Positions 13,280 through 23,101 are shown, numbered from the stretch's first letter. The stretch: DNA of 46,442 bases from Candidatus Micrarchaeota archaeon (GCA_013360305.1 JABWCK010000002.1:1-46442); one strand, 5' to 3'. The notes: generated by a model from the letters alone, not told the origin. Numbers and translations are program-made.

Positions 13280-13915
13280 TTAAAGCTTTTCAGGAAAAGC
13301 CGTATTACCCAACTCCAAAAAACCAGGCTTGGAGTATTTAGTGTTTACTAATTCTCCACCAATTACTTTTCCTCTGAGTAAAGATACTTTAACTCCGTGT
13401 CTAATATTTTTTTCATCAACTAATTCAGCATCGTGTTTTTGTTCTGAATAGTATTCAGTAAAATTAGTTCCTGAAGCTAATAACGTAACGCCTGCTAGTG
13501 CGCGCAGCGCGTTTTTCAAAAAGCGTCGCCTAGTTATTGGTTCTTGGCTTGACAATGCAGCGCTACTGCCTGCTCCGGTTGCTAGTAGCAAGCTAGTCAG
13601 CAATTTTTGGTTAAACCAAGCTTTCCTGCGAGTTTTAGGTATTGATTCTAGCCTGCTTAATTCTTCTGATTTTATTTTTATTATTGGAGTCCCTTTTCTT
13701 TTGTATTGTTCTACCAAGTGCTTAGTAACCGGGTTGTTTTCAGTATTTTCGTGTTCTAATACGAACAACGCGTCTATTTCTGGGAGTTTAGGAGTACTGG
13801 CAGTAGTTGGTTGTGTTCCTAACGCATCAAGCGACTCGTTTTGCATTGCTGGAGTGATTATAGTTATTGTTTTTCCTTGAATTGTTTTGCGTTCAGTAAC
13901 AAAAGTATTAGCCAT
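13280..13915 (-). CDS. Hypothetical membrane protein with internal twin-arginine-like motif
   Basis: Two hydrophobic segments separated by ITRRRFLK; overlaps the fni stop. Confidence 0.55.
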   Translation of the reverse strand: MANTFVTERKTIQGKTITIITPAMQNESLDALGTQPTTASTPKLPEIDALFVLEHENTENNPVTKHLVEQYKRKGTPIIKIKSEELSRLESIPKTRRKAWFNQKLLTSLLLATGAGSSAALSSQEPITRRRFLKNALRALAGVTLLASGTNFTEYYSEQKHDAELVDEKNIRHGVKVSLLRGKVIGGELVNTKYSKPGFLELGNTAFPEKL

Positions 13916-14918
13916 TTTCTAACATCTTGGCTTTCTTTAGTTGCGTTAAGTTCTTGCTTCTAGTCAAAAACATTGCTATCTGTAATCCTTTCTTGAATGA
14001 CTGGATTTCTTCACGAATTGCTTTCACTCCGCCCTTGTTTTGAGCTTGAATGAATGGCTTAGCTACTCCGCAAAGAGAAGCACCGAATCGAATTGCTTTC
14101 GCGCAATCTAAACCATTCCTTAACCCGCCTGACGCGATTAAGGGTAGTGAAGTTGATGCCGAGCATTGTTGTAATGCGGTCAACGTTGGCACTCCAAAGT
14201 CCCAGAACAAGTTTCCTTCCTTTGCGCCTTTCCTGTAAATTTCAATCGCAGTCCAACTAGTTCCTCCTGCTCCGGCTACATCTACGGCGCTAACTCCTGC
14301 TTCTTGAAGCTCTCTTGCGACGAATCCATTAATTCCCGCGCCTACTTCTTTAGCGATAATCGGAAACTTTGCATAATCGCATAGTTTTGAAATTGCTTTT
14401 AAGACTCCAACCCAGTTTCTATCTCCTTCTGGTTGTACGGTTTCTTGCAACGCATTAATGTGAATAAAACAACCGTTGGCTTCAATTTTTTCTACAGCGT
14501 CACAAACTTGCTTTGGAGTGTATTCCAACAATTGAGCCGCGCCGAAGTTTCCATACAAAACTGCTTTTGGAGCGTGTTTTCGCACCATAAACGTTTTTGC
14601 TAATTCCGAATGCTTGAGCATTGGCCTCATGCTACCAAAACCCATTGGTATTCCTTCTGCTTCTGCAGCAATAGCTAGTTCTTGGTTGATTTTTTCTCCT
14701 TCGGCGTAACCGCCGGTCATTGAAGAAATTAATAACGGTGCTTGGAAAGAGTGCTTTAAGAAACTAGTTTTCAAAGAAACTTCATTGAAGTTCATTTCAG
14801 GCAAAGCGTAATACAAGAAGTCAATATCGTTAAAGCCCGTTTTCTTGTTTTTGAAATCAATGTCCTTATTCAAAACAATATCAACGTGTTGCGCCTTACG
14901 ATCAGCAATCTTAGTCAT
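13908..14918 (-). CDS. fni: Type 2 isopentenyl-diphosphate delta-isomerase (FMN-dependent)
   Basis: RKAQH, ISSMTGG, HINALQE, QPEGD, KEVGAG, AGAGGTSW and ASGGLRNG motifs. Confidence 0.96.
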   Translation of the reverse strand: MTKIADRKAQHVDIVLNKDIDFKNKKTGFNDIDFLYYALPEMNFNEVSLKTSFLKHSFQAPLLISSMTGGYAEGEKINQELAIAAEAEGIPMGFGSMRPMLKHSELAKTFMVRKHAPKAVLYGNFGAAQLLEYTPKQVCDAVEKIEANGCFIHINALQETVQPEGDRNWVGVLKAISKLCDYAKFPIIAKEVGAGINGFVARELQEAGVSAVDVAGAGGTSWTAIEIYRKGAKEGNLFWDFGVPTLTALQQCSASTSLPLIASGGLRNGLDCAKAIRFGASLCGVAKPFIQAQNKGGVKAIREEIQSFKKGLQIAMFLTRSKNLTQLKKAKMLENG

Positions 14919-15313: not shown

Positions 15314-15694
15314 ATGAAGATTATTAGCTTGTCTTTAGATGACGAGTTCTTGAGTGATTTAGACAAAGCCGGAAAGAAATTAGGTTATAATAGTAGGAGC
15401 AAGGTATTGCGTGAGGGCGTAAAATCGTTAATGCAGCAATACGTTTCATTAGACGATTTACCTGCAAACGCGTCTTTAGTTATTACTGTAGTTCACAATC
15501 ATGCTGGTGATGATTTTGTTTCGAAATTATCTCACGAGTTTGAGGACGTTATTGAAACTAAGATTCACAAGTCTTCAAAAAACGGGTGTGTTGAAGTGTT
15601 ATTAGTCGAAGGACCTTCGCATAGGGCTAGTGACTTGGTTAAGAAATTGAAAGCCAGCAAGAAAATCAAGGCTGTTTTTTATTATCCAGTATAG
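15314..15694 (+). CDS. NikR-like ribbon-helix-helix/ACT regulator
   Basis: IISLSL...GYNSRSKVLREG RHH domain; C-terminal domain with H...H...CVEV. Confidence 0.8.
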   Translation: MKIISLSLDDEFLSDLDKAGKKLGYNSRSKVLREGVKSLMQQYVSLDDLPANASLVITVVHNHAGDDFVSKLSHEFEDVIETKIHKSSKNGCVEVLLVEGPSHRASDLVKKLKASKKIKAVFYYPV

Positions 15695-16398
15695 CTTTCG
15701 AGGATTTTTTGCAAGTCCTTTAATCCTTGAATCATGAAGTCTGGCTTTTCAAGAACTAATTGTTCCCTAGTAGAAACTCCAGTAATTGCTCCAATAGTAG
15801 TGCACTTTATTTTTTTACCTGCTTGAACTTCCGCAACTGAATCAGTTACTATGAAACACTCTTCTAGTTTTAGCTTGAATTGCTTAGACGCAAAACCAAA
15901 CGGCTTATCGTTCTTACAAATAATCAAGTTAGTTTGAATCCCGTACTTATCCAGCAAAAACTCGGCGAATTTTTTATCCAAGTTAGTGTAAACGGCTACT
16001 TTGAATTTTTTTTTCTGCAAGAAAACACTCAAGCTGCCAGGTTCTGCTAGCGGCTTAACCATGTGATTCAACTTAACCCATCCAGAATACAATTCCTCAT
16101 ACTTCCTTAAAGCGATAGAAATTGTTTTTTCATCCTTTTCAGTAAACTTGTTGATTTCTAGAATTATTTTCTCGGAATCAACAATCTTGCCAAGCTTGTA
16201 CACTACTAGCAACGCCTTGAAGAAATTTTTCCTACTAGCGAACTCGGGCAACGAATGCAAGTAAAACAAGTCGTTCAAGTTTTGTTTTATAGTAATGCCT
16301 GCTTTGTTAAAGCTTTGAACAATAACGTAAGCTTCCAACTGTTTTACACTAACTAAAACGCCTTCTAACTTCAACAAAGCAGCCTTCAAAACAATCAT
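15682..16398 (-). CDS. HAD-superfamily-like protein, degenerate catalytic motif I
   Basis: VYTN (motif II), KP (III), IVTDS...E (IV) and a C-terminal PDF motif; motif I reads KLEGV instead of DxDGT. Confidence 0.65.
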   Translation of the reverse strand: MIVLKAALLKLEGVLVSVKQLEAYVIVQSFNKAGITIKQNLNDLFYLHSLPEFASRKNFFKALLVVYKLGKIVDSEKIILEINKFTEKDEKTISIALRKYEELYSGWVKLNHMVKPLAEPGSLSVFLQKKKFKVAVYTNLDKKFAEFLLDKYGIQTNLIICKNDKPFGFASKQFKLKLEECFIVTDSVAEVQAGKKIKCTTIGAITGVSTREQLVLEKPDFMIQGLKDLQKILESYTG

Positions 16399-17533: not shown

Positions 17534-18610
17534 TTATTTCACAATGATTTCTTTCTTTATTTCATCAAAGCGAGCTTCCTTAGCGTTGCCGTTAGAATCA
17601 ATCAAGTGTCCTTGGTTTAAGTATTTTGGTCCTTCGCCTACTTTGCAAACCATTGTTTTAGTAACTCCTTCAATTCTGCTTAATAGTTTGACTACTTCTT
17701 CTACTTGGTCTGCGGTAGTATAAACGTGAGCGTTTGGACCAGCGTCAAAAGTATAAGCTGCCTTAATGCTTCCTTTAGATGCGTTGAATTCTTGAACTGC
17801 GTACATTATTTCTTTTGAATAATCATTCAAGTAAGTGATCGAGGGCCAAGTGTCAAGCATTACTGCGTGCATGTTTGACGACTCGCGCATTGTTAACTCT
17901 CCAAATTTAGCGAAATCTTTAGCTAGTACTGCTTTCTTCATTTCTTCAATTAACTTTGGCACGTACTGCAATCTAGCTGGATACAATACGCTAGTGGCAA
18001 TGGTTTGCTTCATTCCTGCTCTTGATGATACTTTCTTTTTTCCAGCATCAACTACTGCAATAACGTTTCTCAATTCTGGCCAGTGTGATGCAGGCGCAAT
18101 TTGAACGGCTATGCTATCGCTTCCATCTGTTTTTGAACCCATTTTCCATTCTACGAAACCACCGTCAACACTTCTACAAGCAGAACCGCTTCCTAGCCTT
18201 GCTAGTATGGATAATTCTGAAGGACTTAAGTTTAATCCAGCAGCTTTTGAAGCAGCGCAAGCTAATGCTGCTAGTCCTGCCGCGCTTGAAGCGAATCCTG
18301 CAGCAGTCGGGAAGCAATTAAGCGAAACGATTTTAGCCTTGGTTGTTATTCCTGCTTTTTTTCTTATGACGTCTATTTGTTGCAATCTTTCAGCAGTTTC
18401 TTTATCGGTTAAATCCATTTTCTTTCCATTCAACCAAAACTCATCTTCTTTAAACGATGAATCAAAAGCAACACTTGTTCGAGTTCTTAGTTGTTCATCC
18501 ATAGTAAAACTCAAGCTCGAATTAGTAGGCAAGATTAGCTTATCGTCTCTTTTTCCCCAATACTTTACTACCGCAATGTTAGCAGTCGCTTCACAAGTAA
18601 CAATATTCAT
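17534..18610 (-). CDS. mvaD: Diphosphomevalonate decarboxylase
   Basis: NIAVVKYWGKRD, FPTAAGFASSAAG, ARLGSGSACRS, SNMHA and YTFDAGPN motifs. Confidence 0.92.
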   Translation of the reverse strand: MNIVTCEATANIAVVKYWGKRDDKLILPTNSSLSFTMDEQLRTRTSVAFDSSFKEDEFWLNGKKMDLTDKETAERLQQIDVIRKKAGITTKAKIVSLNCFPTAAGFASSAAGLAALACAASKAAGLNLSPSELSILARLGSGSACRSVDGGFVEWKMGSKTDGSDSIAVQIAPASHWPELRNVIAVVDAGKKKVSSRAGMKQTIATSVLYPARLQYVPKLIEEMKKAVLAKDFAKFGELTMRESSNMHAVMLDTWPSITYLNDYSKEIMYAVQEFNASKGSIKAAYTFDAGPNAHVYTTADQVEEVVKLLSRIEGVTKTMVCKVGEGPKYLNQGHLIDSNGNAKEARFDEIKKEIIVK

Positions 18611-18697
18611 TCATTTCACCATTTGAGTATATTATCGTTTTATGTTCCAAAACTAAGTGGAAGTTATAATATTAAAACTAAAACATAAATTGTTATT

Positions 18698-19666
18698 ATG
18701 GAAATAACTGCTTCTGCTCCTACTAAAATCATTATTACTGGTGAGCATGCAGTCGTTCATGGTTGTACGGGATTAGCAGTCCCTTTAGATTCTAGAAACA
18801 GCGTTACGATAAAAACTATTTCTTCTCGTAAAGTGGTTTTGCCTCCAAATTCAAAAAAACAATTAAGAGATGCTTTTAACTCAGTTTTTTCTTTAGTTAA
18901 TCCTTCAAGTGGCGTAAAAGTTACTTTGGGTTACAGCGGAATGCCTAAGGGTACGGGTAATAGTGCTAGTATTGGAGCAGCTTTTGCTTTAGCTTTGTAT
19001 CATTTAGATGGACGTACTCCCAGCAAACAAGAACTTTTTGATGCAACACAAGAATTTGAAAAAGTTTTCCATGTAGCTCCTTCGGGAATAGATGCTCGTA
19101 CTGTTTTAGGAAATTCTTCCTTAACAATGAAAAAACAATGGAAGAAAGGCCAAGTTGTTTTTAATTTTAAAGAAAAAAAACTAGTGCTACCACGCTCTAT
19201 AGTGTTACTTATTGTAGAAAGCAAGTTGAAAGAAACTCCATTAACTACAGGAGAATTAGTAACTTTATTCTCCAAAACGTTAGTAGGCAAGCATCCTAAT
19301 GACGTAAATCCTGTTGAGCGAAAGTTTATCGTTGATTTGTTCGAGCCAATAACTAAAGATATTATTGGAGAATTAAAACAAAACGGAAACTCTGCAAAAC
19401 TAGGCAAGTTATTTTTAGAAAATCATTTTCTACTACAAAAAAGTGGAGTAATACCTGATAGTATGGATCAAACAATTCGCGATTTAGTTGCTAGTGGTTG
19501 TTTAGGTGCTAAAGGCACAGGCGCATGTGGCCCCGGTGGCGTAGTGATTGCGTTATCTAAAGAAAAAGAAGTAGAAAAAATAAAGAAAAAATTAGGCTCT
19601 AAATATAATATCAAAGTTGCTTCATTTGCTTCTGAAGGACCAAGAATAGAAAAAGTAGTAAAATAA
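18698..19666 (+). CDS. mvk: Mevalonate kinase (divergent GHMP)
   Basis: SAPTKIIITGEHAVVHG, E-x-x-x-H...PSGID, ENH-x-LL and GAKGTGA motifs; non-canonical P-loop (PKGTGNSAS). Confidence 0.85.
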   Translation: MEITASAPTKIIITGEHAVVHGCTGLAVPLDSRNSVTIKTISSRKVVLPPNSKKQLRDAFNSVFSLVNPSSGVKVTLGYSGMPKGTGNSASIGAAFALALYHLDGRTPSKQELFDATQEFEKVFHVAPSGIDARTVLGNSSLTMKKQWKKGQVVFNFKEKKLVLPRSIVLLIVESKLKETPLTTGELVTLFSKTLVGKHPNDVNPVERKFIVDLFEPITKDIIGELKQNGNSAKLGKLFLENHFLLQKSGVIPDSMDQTIRDLVASGCLGAKGTGACGPGGVVIALSKEKEVEKIKKKLGSKYNIKVASFASEGPRIEKVVK

Positions 19667-19669
19667 TTA
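19626..19669 (+). repeat. Direct repeat copy 1 (3' end of mvk)
   Basis: TTGCTTCTGAAGGACCAAGAATAGAAAAAGTA (32 bp exact), then 2 mismatches, then AAAATAATTA; matches 21792-21835. Confidence 0.95.
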
Positions 19670-19685
19670 GTGGGCAATGGCGAGA

Positions 19686-20225
19686 TCAGAACTTTTTTCG
19701 ACCACTTTGCCCTTTTAGTTCTGAAATTATTTTCTTAACATCATAATCTGCTTCTTTTTCTAGTTTTTTAAATTGTTTTGAAGCAATCAAGTTTTCCTCA
19801 ACTCTGATCCCAACACTCTTTCCCGTTTCCTTGTCTTTAATTGCGTAAACCGCGAAATTCTCGTCCATAATCATGCTCTTAAAATTAGAGTTATTTATAA
19901 AACCCATTCTAAAGTTGGGTAGTGATAAGTATTTTTCCCATAGTTGAAGTGTTTTTTCTAAAGTTTTTTTATCCATTGTTAAAAGCATTTGTTTAGTTTC
20001 GGGCAAAGACGATAAATAAACTGTTTTTAGTCCTGAAAATATTTTGTTCATTGCTTTGTGAGTATATTTTTTTCTCCATAGTCCTTTTTGTTCTTGAAAA
20101 ATTAACAAAGTAGGTGTTTTTGCTGCTACATAAAATTCATTTGCGTTTGCAACCATTCGAGTCGCAGCTTTGTAGTACACGTCAGGACTAATTTCTTGTT
20201 GTAAATTAGAATAGGTAGTCTTCAT
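19686..20225 (-). CDS. Stand-alone paralog of the C-terminal (TrmB/PLD-like) domain of the 20872-21726 regulator
   Basis: ISPDVYY...YVAAKTPTLL...WRKKY...KTVYLSS aligns by eye with TSPDDFY...RLASKTPAII...LRKTY...KAKYLFS. Confidence 0.65.
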   Translation of the reverse strand: MKTTYSNLQQEISPDVYYKAATRMVANANEFYVAAKTPTLLIFQEQKGLWRKKYTHKAMNKIFSGLKTVYLSSLPETKQMLLTMDKKTLEKTLQLWEKYLSLPNFRMGFINNSNFKSMIMDENFAVYAIKDKETGKSVGIRVEENLIASKQFKKLEKEADYDVKKIISELKGQSGRKKF

Positions 20226-20280
20226 TATACTTCATATCTTTTTTTATACAAAATGATTTCTGTTTATTTTTAATATTTTT

Positions 20281-20847
20281 TTATTTATTTAAAGTTTTAA
20301 GATAATGCATTAGAATGACTCTGGCAGCAGGCGTAAATTTTTCTTTCTTTAATAATTCGGATATTTCTTGTGTTGAATAATGAGTCGTTCCTTTTGGGTT
20401 TACTTCTTTTTCATTTATTTTAAAACTACCTTCGTATTCGGCAATAAGTGGAAGGTATAGTCTGTGGGGGTTGTCACTGTCAATTTCTCTTGGTATTTTC
20501 CACAAAACTTTTAGTTTTTTAATTGATTGTCTTTCGATTCCTAATTCCTCTATTGCTTCTCTTATTGCAGCACCCTTGATGAATTCTGATACTGCAAAAG
20601 GGCCTTTAGTCGCCTGTAATCCCCCGGACGCACTTGTTGTATAAAAATTAGGATAATCATTTTTACTTGCTGCTCTTTGTTGAAGTAATATTCTACCTTC
20701 TCCGTCTTTTAGAAGGAGCATGACGAATACGTGTGGTTGCTTGGTGGTGTTTGCTTCTTTTCTAGTTATTTTTCTCCCAGTAATGTATGGTCCAAAAAAG
20801 GGTAAATTAATTGTCTTATGATATTTGTTTACTAGTTCCTCCGGCAT
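20281..20847 (-). CDS. Nudix-fold hydrolase, IDI-1/YfcD-like
   Basis: H-x-x-V...GRILLQQRAASKNDYP, AAIREAIEELGI and NEKEV motifs. Confidence 0.8.
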   Translation of the reverse strand: MPEELVNKYHKTINLPFFGPYITGRKITRKEANTTKQPHVFVMLLLKDGEGRILLQQRAASKNDYPNFYTTSASGGLQATKGPFAVSEFIKGAAIREAIEELGIERQSIKKLKVLWKIPREIDSDNPHRLYLPLIAEYEGSFKINEKEVNPKGTTHYSTQEISELLKKEKFTPAARVILMHYLKTLNK

Positions 20848-20871
20848 ATATTATAGTTTAATTCTAGTTCT

Positions 20872-21726
20872 TTAAATTCTGTTTGCTGGGTTTAATTCGT
20901 TTTCAATCTCGTCTATGAATTCTTTGCACTCGTTAGCATTTACGAAAATATTATCGTAAATATTTGATATTTCTTTAGTATCTAGACTACTCATATGAAG
21001 AATTCCTACTAAATCCGTGTGGCTCGGTGAAGCAAAACCTATCATACAATCTTTGCTTCCGATAACTAGTGTCGTTACTGTGTGTAACGGTGCGTGTCTT
21101 AATCGCAACCCCGTTATTTTTGAAAGTTTTTTTAGGGTGTTTATTGCTTTCTTATCTTTCTCGGCTAGTATTTTTTTTCTTGTCAAATCGGTAGAAAATA
21201 AATACTTTGCTTTAAGAACACCTTTTGTAGTGAGTTTCAACAGGTTTTCTACATATGTCTTCCGAAGTGGAGTAAGTTCTGTTTCTTTTGACAAGATTAT
21301 TGCAGGCGTTTTACTGGCGAGTCTAATAGTTGATTCTTTGAGAACAAGTTGATTTAATATTAGATAAAAATCATCAGGGCTGGTATAGATTCTTATGTTT
21401 GCTGTCTTCGTATTACGCGTGGTTAGTCCTTTTTTAGTCTCGGAGTAAGCGTTTTTAGTAATTCTTCCAAACCTTTCGATTTCTTTAAGCCAATTTAAGT
21501 TCAATTCGTATTTGTTATTTTTAGTTGTTGAGATTATACTTAAGTCTACTAGTTGTTTTACTACTTTGTGGACGCCTTGATAACTTATATTGTAGTTTAG
21601 ATCGTTCTTAATTTTGTTATAAACCTGTTTTGTAGAAAGAGGCCATTCTGCACTAAGAACAGTTACGACTAATTGTTTACAATCACTTTCCTTTGTTCCA
21701 AACAACGATGGTTTTTTAGAATTCAT
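20872..21726 (-). CDS. Winged-helix transcriptional regulator with C-terminal putative sensor domain
   Basis: VLSAEWPLSTKQVYN...ISYQGVHKVVKQLVD...KYELN wHTH, followed by a TrmB-effector-like alpha/beta domain. Confidence 0.75.
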   Translation of the reverse strand: MNSKKPSLFGTKESDCKQLVVTVLSAEWPLSTKQVYNKIKNDLNYNISYQGVHKVVKQLVDLSIISTTKNNKYELNLNWLKEIERFGRITKNAYSETKKGLTTRNTKTANIRIYTSPDDFYLILNQLVLKESTIRLASKTPAIILSKETELTPLRKTYVENLLKLTTKGVLKAKYLFSTDLTRKKILAEKDKKAINTLKKLSKITGLRLRHAPLHTVTTLVIGSKDCMIGFASPSHTDLVGILHMSSLDTKEISNIYDNIFVNANECKEFIDEIENELNPANRI

Positions 21727-21791
21727 TTAGGTAACTACTAGCGTTTTAAAGTTATAAAAAATATTTGTTGTGTTGTAAAAACAATTTTTTC

Positions 21792-21835
21792 TTGCTTCTG
21801 AAGGACCAAGAATAGAAAAAGTACAAAAATAATTA
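21792..21835 (+). repeat. Direct repeat copy 2 (orphan mvk 3' end abutting the HMGR stop)
   Basis: Encodes ASEGPRIEKVQK* versus the mvk end ASEGPRIEKVVK*. Its TAA (21830-21832) touches the reverse-strand stop of HMGR (21833-21835). Confidence 0.95.
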
Positions 21836-23101
21836 TTTCATCAATTCTTTTGCTCGTTCGAGTTTGACGTTTTTTTCTTCGTACATTTTTTCAGCGATTT
21901 TTCTTATTTGTTCTCCTTTTGCTCCAGCCATTACTGCAATATTGTTAGCATGCAAACGCATGTGGCCCCGGTTGATTCCTTCTGTTGACAAAGCACGAAC
22001 TGCAGCAAAGTTTTGAGCTAGTCCAACACAAGCAATTATTTCCGCCAATTCCTTAGCAGTCTTTACTCCTAGTAATTTAAGACTCATTTGTGCGAGGGGG
22101 TGTGTTTTTGTTGCTCCGCCGACTATTCCCAACGCCAAAGGCAACTCAATCTCCCCAACCAAATCCCCATTCTTATTCTTGTAATATTTAGTCAAAGGCT
22201 TGTATCTACCTGTTAGCGAAGCGAAAGCGTGTGCTCCTGCTTCGATAGCGCGAAAATCGTTTCCTGTAGCTATAACTACTGCGTCTATTCCGTTCATTAT
22301 TCCCTTGTTGTGAGTCACCGCTCTATATGGATCGGCTTCAGCGAAAGCATAACAATCCAAAAACCGCTCAATAATTTCTTCTCCAGTAAATTCTCCTTTA
22401 AACGATTTTTCCAAATTGTCCTTAGTCCATACTGCCTTAGCTCTAGCTAACCGCTTTACAGCTAGGTTTGATAGAATGCGTAATCGAGCTTCTCCTCCGG
22501 TTAATTCTTCTAACAAGGGAGCGAGTTTTTCGCACATTGAGTTTACTGTGTTGGCTCCCATTGCGTCTTGAACGTTTACTTCCAAGTAAACGCAAACGCA
22601 TTCGCCGCGAGTGGTTTGAATTATTTTTGCTTCAAAGTTTTTTGCCCCGCCGCCTTGCTTGAAAATAGTCGAAGAAGGATCATTTATAGAGTCAATTAGT
22701 TTTTTTTTACTAGCTTCAATCGCTTTTATTGCTTTCTTAGCGTCTGGAACGTTGACTAGTTGCACTTGCCCAATCATTATTGGTTCATCAGTTGACGCAG
22801 TGAATCCCTGAGGCAGAGTGATTTCGGCTGCTTTGCTTGCGGCTGCAACAACCGATGGTTCTTCTATGACGAAAGGAATCAATCTTTCGATTCCGTTGAT
22901 TTTGAAGTTAGTTGCAATGCCTAGTGGTAACTGAAAGGTTCCAATCGCGTTTTCGATCATGTTGTTAGCGGTTTCGAAGCTCAACGCGTTTTCTAACAAA
23001 GTAAATTCTTCTTTGGTAAGGTGAGTGTTTTTTTTCAAGAAGTCGATTTTTTCTTGCAAGGATTTTTTATGGAATTCGTTCCATTTTATTTGTGAAGTCA
23101 T
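21833..23101 (-). CDS. mvaA: HMG-CoA reductase, class II
   Basis: MIENAIG, EEPSVVAA, DAMGAN, RILSN, THNKGIMNGI, GNDFRA and GHMRLH motifs. Confidence 0.95.
   Translation of the reverse strand: MTSQIKWNEFHKKSLQEKIDFLKKNTHLTKEEFTLLENALSFETANNMIENAIGTFQLPLGIATNFKINGIERLIPFVIEEPSVVAAASKAAEITLPQGFTASTDEPIMIGQVQLVNVPDAKKAIKAIEASKKKLIDSINDPSSTIFKQGGGAKNFEAKIIQTTRGECVCVYLEVNVQDAMGANTVNSMCEKLAPLLEELTGGEARLRILSNLAVKRLARAKAVWTKDNLEKSFKGEFTGEEIIERFLDCYAFAEADPYRAVTHNKGIMNGIDAVVIATGNDFRAIEAGAHAFASLTGRYKPLTKYYKNKNGDLVGEIELPLALGIVGGATKTHPLAQMSLKLLGVKTAKELAEIIACVGLAQNFAAVRALSTEGINRGHMRLHANNIAVMAGAKGEQIRKIAEKMYEEKNVKLERAKELMK

Follow-up and report, generated by a model that had tools for sequence, protein, structure and literature searches.

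Prophages 21 and e14 of Escherichia coli integrate in the 3′ end of the protein-coding gene icd and carry a replacement end. Gene order can also change by tandem duplication and random loss, a process whose classic description comes from animal mitochondrial genomes. Homology-facilitated illegitimate recombination (HFIR) is defined in PMC3240628, and PMC5361080 invokes this process for bacterial effector-immunity modules that shift the old effector 3′ end and orphan genes downstream; the same source also invokes it for Rhs loci that contain strings of orphaned 3′ regions. Here, we analyzed a 44-base direct repeat that flanks a three-gene interval between the genes for mevalonate kinase (mvk) and class II HMG-CoA reductase (HMGR) in a Candidatus Micrarchaeota archaeon. 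The window is the whole contig C44 (46,442 bases), which belongs to a metagenome-style assembly of 821 kb in 55 contigs with 88.85% completeness. A sequence-only reading of this stretch had proposed that the interval is an integrase-less islet inserted at the mvk 3′ end. The repeat is a real footprint of remodelling of the mevalonate cluster, and it reveals no new mobile element. With our confidence about evenly divided, we propose that the three-gene cassette entered an mvk/HMGR junction without spacer through host recombination that used the mvk 3′ end as its anchor.

The two copies of the repeat lie where the sequence-only reading had placed them and are identical at 42 of the 44 bases, with an exact core of 32 bases. 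Their two mismatches, which had also been noted, are adjacent and fall within one codon, GTA (V) versus CAA (Q). When copy 1 was used as a query with up to three mismatches allowed, exactly two sites were found in the window, and none of 100 dinucleotide-preserving shuffles contained any match. The 44-mer is present as these two copies only in the whole assembly, where direct repeats of at least 28 bases spaced 200-20,000 bases apart number just 18, this pair included. A third "copy" reported by a repeat finder at 19551-19594 (61%) falls in A-rich coding sequence of low complexity and was treated as chance.

Copy 1 constitutes the final 13 codons and the stop of the 322-residue mvk open reading frame (ORF), as had been read. 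Copy 2 translates as LASEGPRIEKVQK followed by a stop; it lacks a start codon and follows closely on an in-frame stop, and no mvk similarity was detected upstream of 21792. Because the nearest mvk homologues (G006 and G022) also end in the motif FA[ST][EQ]GP[RK][ILV]E, copy 2 is a true mvk tail, and its earlier description as an orphan mvk end is upheld. The mvk-type stop TAA (21830-21832) directly abuts TTA (21833-21835), which is the HMGR stop codon on the minus strand, so that the two stops are indeed back-to-back. Both repeat copies extend three bases beyond the mvk stop, that is, over the HMGR stop codon sequence. Removal of the interval yields a compact convergent mvk/HMGR junction, again in agreement with the sequence-only reading, and the corresponding gaps in relatives measure 22 (G014), 24 (G049), and 52 (G003) bases.

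The interval contains three intact ORFs, all on the minus strand, which encode proteins of 179, 188, and 284 residues (a paralogue of a regulator domain, a predicted Nudix hydrolase, and a predicted TrmB-like regulator, respectively). No integrase or transposase was found in these ORFs by Pfam, PHROGs, or NCBIfam, as had been stated before. Models for tyrosine recombinase (PF00589), serine recombinase (PF00239), IS605 OrfB (PF01385), and Cas1 (PF01867) likewise gave 0 matches in the 821-kb assembly, although at 88.85% completeness this does not prove absence from the genome. The same models were positive in 14, 12, 8, and 7 of 14 control genomes, respectively. No terminal inverted repeats of the interval were present among the 25 pairs listed. 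Viral contigs searched with the 284- and 179-residue proteins gave no relatives, and the kin of the Nudix protein in the order are cluster genes. Thus, the interval is probably not a self-mobile element, and the idea of an att-like self-mobile islet was not borne out; taken as a whole, the evidence points, with moderate confidence, to a scar of host recombination.

The locus resembles the icd prophages in that the direct repeat represents a gene 3′ end, of which the copy next to the element keeps the gene whole while the original end is left as an orphan on the other side. It differs from them in that those elements encode a tyrosine integrase beside the attachment (att) site and bear phage cargo, whereas no such integrase was found in the interval or the assembly here and the cargo is accessory to the cluster. 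Transposons, insertion sequences, and miniature inverted-repeat transposable elements differ from the interval, which has no terminal inverted repeats among the pairs listed and no transposase; the 44-base duplication is also far longer than usual. Casposons differ through Cas1, which has no match in this genome. There is also a likeness to HFIR and Campbell-type insertion-duplication, where one homologous anchor (here the mvk 3′ end) imports linked DNA without a dedicated integrase and leaves displaced ends or orphans downstream. However, the known cases are bacterial polymorphic toxin loci under diversifying selection, while this one concerns a housekeeping lipid-precursor cluster of a DPANN archaeon, and its relic is only 44 bases long.

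Insertion anchored on the mvk end is favored because the left side of mvk appears undisturbed, compact junctions occur in kin, the HMGR stop is duplicated, and a zero-length spacer requires a copied gene end. The left side looks undisturbed since the 87-base spacer between mvk and the diphosphomevalonate decarboxylase gene (MVD) has the common compact form (64-150 bases in six clusters). In the ancestral state, mvk and HMGR would have stood stop-to-stop without spacer, and an insertion at such a junction would cut one of the two essential genes unless a gene end were copied. A very close relative, or else a sister chromosome, may have supplied the donor DNA, which would have carried an mvk 3′ end joined to the cassette. 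This end would pair with the resident mvk end and enter by one homologous exchange, while the far side would be closed by a Campbell-type single crossover or an illegitimate join. Such an exchange would duplicate the last 41 mvk bases plus the HMGR stop codon and leave both mvk and HMGR whole: copy 1 would end the working mvk, and copy 2 would be a dead relic supplying only the HMGR stop. A duplicated stop-to-stop junction is what the model expects, and the repeat accordingly comprises the 41 terminal bases of mvk and the HMGR stop codon; by a rough estimate, the three-base extension in both copies has a chance of ~0.04. The duplicated segment is the anchor and flanks the insert without a dedicated recombinase, a pattern that agrees with the model without being specific to it. 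Without a copied gene end, no insertion at a stop-to-stop junction would survive.

The history of mvk bears on the donor. In a maximum-likelihood tree of 19 mvk sequences, that of the window groups with those of G006 and G022 (support 100/99), whereas the other clade (98/96) holds G014, G004, G002, G011, and four genomes of family f2. G014 belongs to the same genus as G006 and G022, yet it has the other mvk type at the same cluster position. The sequence-only reading had set the mvk tree beside those of its neighbors as a source of information, and the two do part here, as MVD shows no split like that of mvk. The family, and even a single genus, therefore contains two mvk types that are deeply separated, which indicates that a distant homologue has taken the place of mvk at least once in the family. 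The repeat-forming event was not this replacement, because the orphan tail is of the same type as the resident mvk and 95% identical to its tail; by the same token, the donor should be a very close relative or the same chromosome. The sequence-only reading had also offered a recombination that brought in a foreign mvk plus cargo. Its mvk-anchored recombination with cargo comes close to the account favored here, but the foreign mvk is doubtful in view of the 95% identity. Among the order's 68 genomes, the same mvk type occurs only in G006 and G022, at 55-58% identity.

The window holds a full classical mevalonate cluster in the order type 2 IDI(−), three small genes, HAD(−), PMK(−), MVD(−), mvk(+), the interval, HMGR(−), HMGS(+), thiolase(+), and DUF35(+). 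The archaeal trio of HMGS, thiolase, and DUF35, like the small size of the genome, agrees with an assignment to Micrarchaeota. We compared the cluster with 28 loci of 26 related genomes, where the recurrent order is IDI2-PMK-MVD(−), mvk(+), HMGR(−), and HMGS-thiolase-DUF35(+). The MVD/mvk spacer measures 64-150 bases in G027, G056, G035, G012, G030, and G049 and 0.5-3.5 kb elsewhere; the mvk/HMGR spacer measures 22-158 bases in G014, G049, G003, G012, and G044 and 0.8-7 kb elsewhere. The genes in these slots vary by genome and include HAD, HD, methyltransferase, free-standing LAGLIDADG-like, membrane transporter, and YbaK-like genes and a second HMGR. The spacers around mvk thus differ in gene content among relatives, and therefore the interval sits in a habitually remodelled slot.

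The kinship of the cargo genes leads back to the same cluster. Among the 67 other genomes of the order, G014 and G022 alone have Nudix relatives at E≤1e-12, both of them HAD-Nudix fusions that directly adjoin MVD; G006 has a remnant-like Nudix match at the same place in the cluster. A HMMER pass over 1.84 billion representatives with the Nudix query gave three proteins at E≤1e-30, namely the query and two members of this fusion family, and a word-indexed search with the Nudix protein returned itself only. The best non-self Nudix matches, P0012 and P0013 (43-45% identity), are 62-71% identical to the HAD-Nudix proteins of G014 and G022. The fusion proteins of G022 (L025 3541-4875) and G014 (L028 1129-2130) and protein P0013 have ~440 residues and are encoded immediately upstream of MVD. 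Each combines a predicted phosphatase with a predicted diphosphatase and is linked to the mevalonate cluster. The HAD gene of the window (15682-16398) is not detectably related to the Nudix-fused HAD of G022, and no link through it is claimed. The regulator family is rare, with seven proteins at E≤0.001 among 5.8 billion in a word-indexed search, and occurs in 2 of 400 other genomes of the phylum; a genome-contig scan with the 284-residue protein gave no match. In G037, a full-length regulator homologue stands directly upstream of MVD, a position that is suggestive of a tie between this family and the cluster. Taken together, the cargo, as far as sequence kinship goes, belongs to the cluster neighborhood and is not foreign in kind.

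Several results weigh against the favored insertion. The guanine-plus-cytosine (GC) content of the interval is 32.2%, against 39.0 ± 1.95% in 2.1-kb windows, and ties for the lowest of the genome (at or below the 0.08th percentile, n = 3,553), and in tetranucleotide distance it ranks among the top 1.5% of the genome. The GC at third codon positions (GC3) of mvk, 0.196, is the lowest of the neighborhood and stands at the 0.5th percentile of 744 ORFs. This low GC fits better with import from a lower-GC donor than with a local or near-identical source. The regulator homologue of G046 is not near the cluster, so that the cluster link holds in one of two genomes, and in G037, MVD itself, not the regulator, may have moved. 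Homologues of the 179- and 284-residue proteins were absent from the slots of the first seven relatives' loci. No close strain, empty site, donor, or intermediate was found: none of the order's 68 genomes is close to the window genome, and a metagenome mvk scan yielded 36 loci with 38% identity at best. Also, the scar alone cannot tell a Campbell-type, a one-ended, or another route apart. The sequence-only reading had looked to GC and codon usage for signs of a distinct origin. The GC part holds, as the values for the interval and mvk are atypical, but the synonymous codon usage of mvk and the three cargo genes is ordinary, at the 40th-79th percentile among genes of like length. The other lowest-GC stretch of the genome, at 26.4-30 kb of C6, likewise holds small, poorly conserved genes.

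An outside donor for the cargo is not needed if the locus arose by tandem duplication and differential loss, in which an ancestor with the order MVD-[cassette]-mvk-HMGR, as in genus g6, doubled the block of cassette and mvk and then lost the first cassette and most of the second mvk. The Nudix homologues of G014 and G022, with the remnant of G006, lie between MVD and mvk, on the opposite side of mvk, and the window order relative to G014 and G022 is a block swap with orientations kept, as this model predicts; the tail beside HMGR is the expected residue of a decayed second mvk. The block swap, the kept orientations, and the short pseudogene relic are shared with gene-order change by tandem duplication and random loss, but here neither a relic of the other lost copy, that is, of the first cassette, nor an intermediate was seen. 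Moreover, two clean deletions would be required, one of which would have to restore the typical compact 87-base divergent spacer, and the low GC of the block is left unexplained. Residual homology between the two spacers that would have a common origin under this model (18611-18697 and 21727-21791) was rejected, as their local score of 24.5 is matched by 22% of 377 low-GC genomic 87-mers. We therefore regard this history as possible but rather unlikely. The low GC and the atypical tetranucleotide make-up speak for an att-like integration of a non-autonomous islet, whose att core would be the 44-mer and whose integrase would be elsewhere (unassembled, on a virus or plasmid, or lost); a 2.17-kb circle could still excise. 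Its geometry is that of elements that integrate in a gene 3′ end and regenerate the gene, and an integrase could be missing from an assembly of 88.85% completeness. However, the four recombinase families have no match in 821 kb, the three ORFs include no integrase or transposase, the genome has no further copy of the 44-mer, viral contigs gave no relatives of the regulator or its paralogue, the Nudix kin in the order are cluster genes only, and codon usage is ordinary. We thus consider this integration improbable.

A long duplication may also be made by an enzyme or repair route of another kind, through staggered breaks or replication template switching, that acts on small hairpin elements in the family as well. 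G011, which belongs to the same family, has a hairpin-rich element of 124 bases (C17, L098 8376-8556) inserted where a HAD gene begins in the MVD/mvk slot, and a 29-base duplication (27/29) that flanks the element regenerates the HAD start codon. Partial copies with 74-87% identity occur three more times in G011, once in G002, and twice in G017, and it resembles a small, repeated insertion element whose target duplication is long. It is, however, the one parallel among the 28 relatives' loci scanned; the ends of the window interval share nothing evident with it, and no candidate enzyme was found. We judge such a route a long shot for the window. An assembly artefact, in which two strain variants were misjoined at the shared 32-mer, is conceivable in a metagenome-style assembly of 55 contigs with a 32-base exact core in the repeat. 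On the other hand, unique sequence stands on both sides of both junctions, two independent false joins would be needed, and the assembly contains no contig with an alternative junction. Sequencing runs from other studies carry 59-92% of the 31-mers of a 4.3-kb stretch, a measure of word content only and not evidence of structure or habitat; of 17 runs, 15 contain some of this stretch and 3 contain at least half of its words, with the same limit on their meaning. An artefact is accordingly very improbable.

Insertion by host recombination anchored on the mvk end thus stays the favored account. The case documents remodelling, in a reduced DPANN genome, of a lipid-precursor cluster that is essential; accessory genes enter and leave two slots around mvk. 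It also flags three candidate proteins as likely modulators of archaeal isoprenoid supply: a Nudix hydrolase confined to the mevalonate clusters of the family, a rare TrmB-like regulator, and a domain paralogue. The cassette may tune the pathway through putative trimming of isoprenoid diphosphates by the Nudix protein and putative control of the cluster by the regulator. As a more speculative proposal, which we think doubtful, Micrarchaeota could exchange small integrase-less cassettes that bear a short copy of a host gene end as a "hook" and are inserted by host recombination or template switching, with a long duplication, tens of bases in length, that regenerates the gene. If this were true, the 44-base scar of the window and the 29-base scar of G011 would be instances of such exchange, and the mevalonate cluster would be a favored arena for it, which could explain why accessory genes, and even the pathway type, differ among close relatives.

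The coordinates of the features are collected in Table 1.

Table 1. Features at and around the mvk/HMGR junction, with positions counted from the first base of the window.
Feature	Position	Strand	Description
MVD (diphosphomevalonate decarboxylase)	17534..18610	−	left neighbor, divergent from mvk; Pfam MVD-like_N 205.8 bits, MDD_C 174.4 bits
MVD/mvk divergent spacer	18611..18697	.	87 bases; compact form common in the order
mvk (mevalonate kinase), 322 residues	18698..19666	+	GHMP_kinases_N and _C; minority "type A" clade
Direct-repeat copy 1	19626..19669	+	functional mvk 3′ end (41 bases including stop) plus TTA
179-residue protein	19686..20225	−	stand-alone paralogue of the C-terminal PLD-like domain of the 20872-21726 regulator
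188-residue Nudix hydrolase (predicted)	20281..20847	−	Pfam NUDIX and Nudix box
284-residue TrmB-like transcription regulator (predicted)	20872..21726	−	winged helix, long helix, PLD-like domain (AlphaFold2/Foldseek)
Spacer	21727..21791	.	65 bases, regulator start to orphan tail
Direct-repeat copy 2	21792..21835	+	non-coding mvk 3′-end relic; last three bases are the HMGR stop codon
HMGR (class II HMG-CoA reductase)	21833..23101	−	convergent with orphan tail; Pfam HMG-CoA_red 369 bits; TIGR00532 426 bits against a cut-off of 260

The 284-residue protein had no Pfam or NCBIfam match, including the curated TrmB models, and its homologues match FilR1_middle weakly, below the cut-off. Its AlphaFold2 model (mean predicted local distance difference test score 80.8) gave as top Foldseek matches TrmBL2 (5bpd/5bpi; E 3.6e-10, ~270 columns) and TrmB (3qph), and by its modelled fold the protein is a TrmB-like regulator. 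The model aligns over its full length with Thermococcales TrmB/TrmBL2 and shares their winged helix, long helix, and PLD-like domain, whereas the sequence identity is 11-14%, the Pfam TrmB match is missing, and the family is rare. The 65-base spacer probably holds the promoter of the regulator gene, as an AT-rich, TATA-like stretch lies 21-31 bases upstream of the start. The 179-residue protein and the regulator gave a BLASTP match of 30% identity over 90 residues (E 2e-5) and were reciprocal hits in the genome; G030 encodes a homologue of the 179-residue protein with 37% identity. A Phage_Mu_Gp48 assignment (Pfam) for the latter was not accepted, since 22.4 bits falls below the cut-off of 37.4. 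The 188-residue protein reached 35 bits with Pfam NUDIX (cut-off 21.1), and its translation contains an intact box, G-x5-E-x7-REUxEExGU, which marks it as a member of the Nudix hydrolase superfamily. Assignment as a type 1 IPP isomerase was rejected (TIGR02150, 31.1 bits against 105.8), and a type 2 isomerase exists in the window at 13908-14918 (376 bits against a cut-off of 281). The mvk product scored 114.8 bits with TIGR00549, below the cut-off of 163, and the window MVD is 76-79% identical to those of G014, G006, and G022. No tRNA genes were detected in the window.

Elsewhere in the same genome, the stretch C6:26400-30500 encodes a V4R-domain protein, a UbiA prenyltransferase, an HD hydrolase, a 250-residue paralogue of the regulator, and a HAD hydrolase. 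The paralogue shows 36% identity over 91 residues to the N-terminal winged helix of the regulator, and this stretch is a second isoprenoid-related neighborhood for the regulator family.

Other relatives show further changes at the junctions of HMGR. G027 has a second, divergent HMG-CoA reductase gene (L027 7634-9043; 469 residues, Pfam 351 bits), placed between mvk and its usual HMGR. Free-standing LAGLIDADG_3-domain genes directly adjoin the HMGR 3′ end in G039 (L097 6336-7292) and G005 (L093 11604-12593), whose families differ, and breaks by homing endonucleases could be one cause of the variability of this junction. In G001 (C14:22000-41000), the sole other genome of the genus, synteny is kept from HMGR rightwards through HMGS, thiolase, DUF35, and the next four genes. 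To the left of HMGR stand genes for mevalonate-3-kinase-like and 2-phosphoglycerate-kinase/mevalonate-3-phosphate-5-kinase-like proteins, a second MVD-like decarboxylase, HAD proteins, and isopentenyl phosphate kinase, of which only the last scored above its curated cut-off. A single genus thus seems to contain lower mevalonate routes of two kinds, which part at the HMGR 3′ end. PMC11052028 places the complete classical pathway in Sulfolobales and some DPANN archaea and the Thermoplasma-type mevalonate pathway in some Micrarchaeota. No paper on integration at mvk was met, though no literature search was aimed at that topic.

Two tRNA-Thr genes 9.2 kb apart (G000:C15:11756-21100) share 83 of 85 bases of the 3′ half and trailer, plus a 35-base hairpin. 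ARAGORN called only the first of them, with anticodon GGU; the second was recognized by eye: its anticodon loop reads CGU, and the ~40-base insert after it is probably an intron. The C15 interval was unusable as a second islet or control, as the far copy is most likely an intron-bearing tRNA-Thr gene and not an orphan att site. No integrase lies between the two genes, where msrA, apbE, a znuABC-type transporter, and a DtxR-type repressor are encoded. The motif AAACTTTTGA.AAAAGTTTGATCAAAA recurs upstream of or inside the tRNA-Thr genes (L092 1200-1230 and 10423-10452) and twice on C54 (2286-2314 and 3134-3162).

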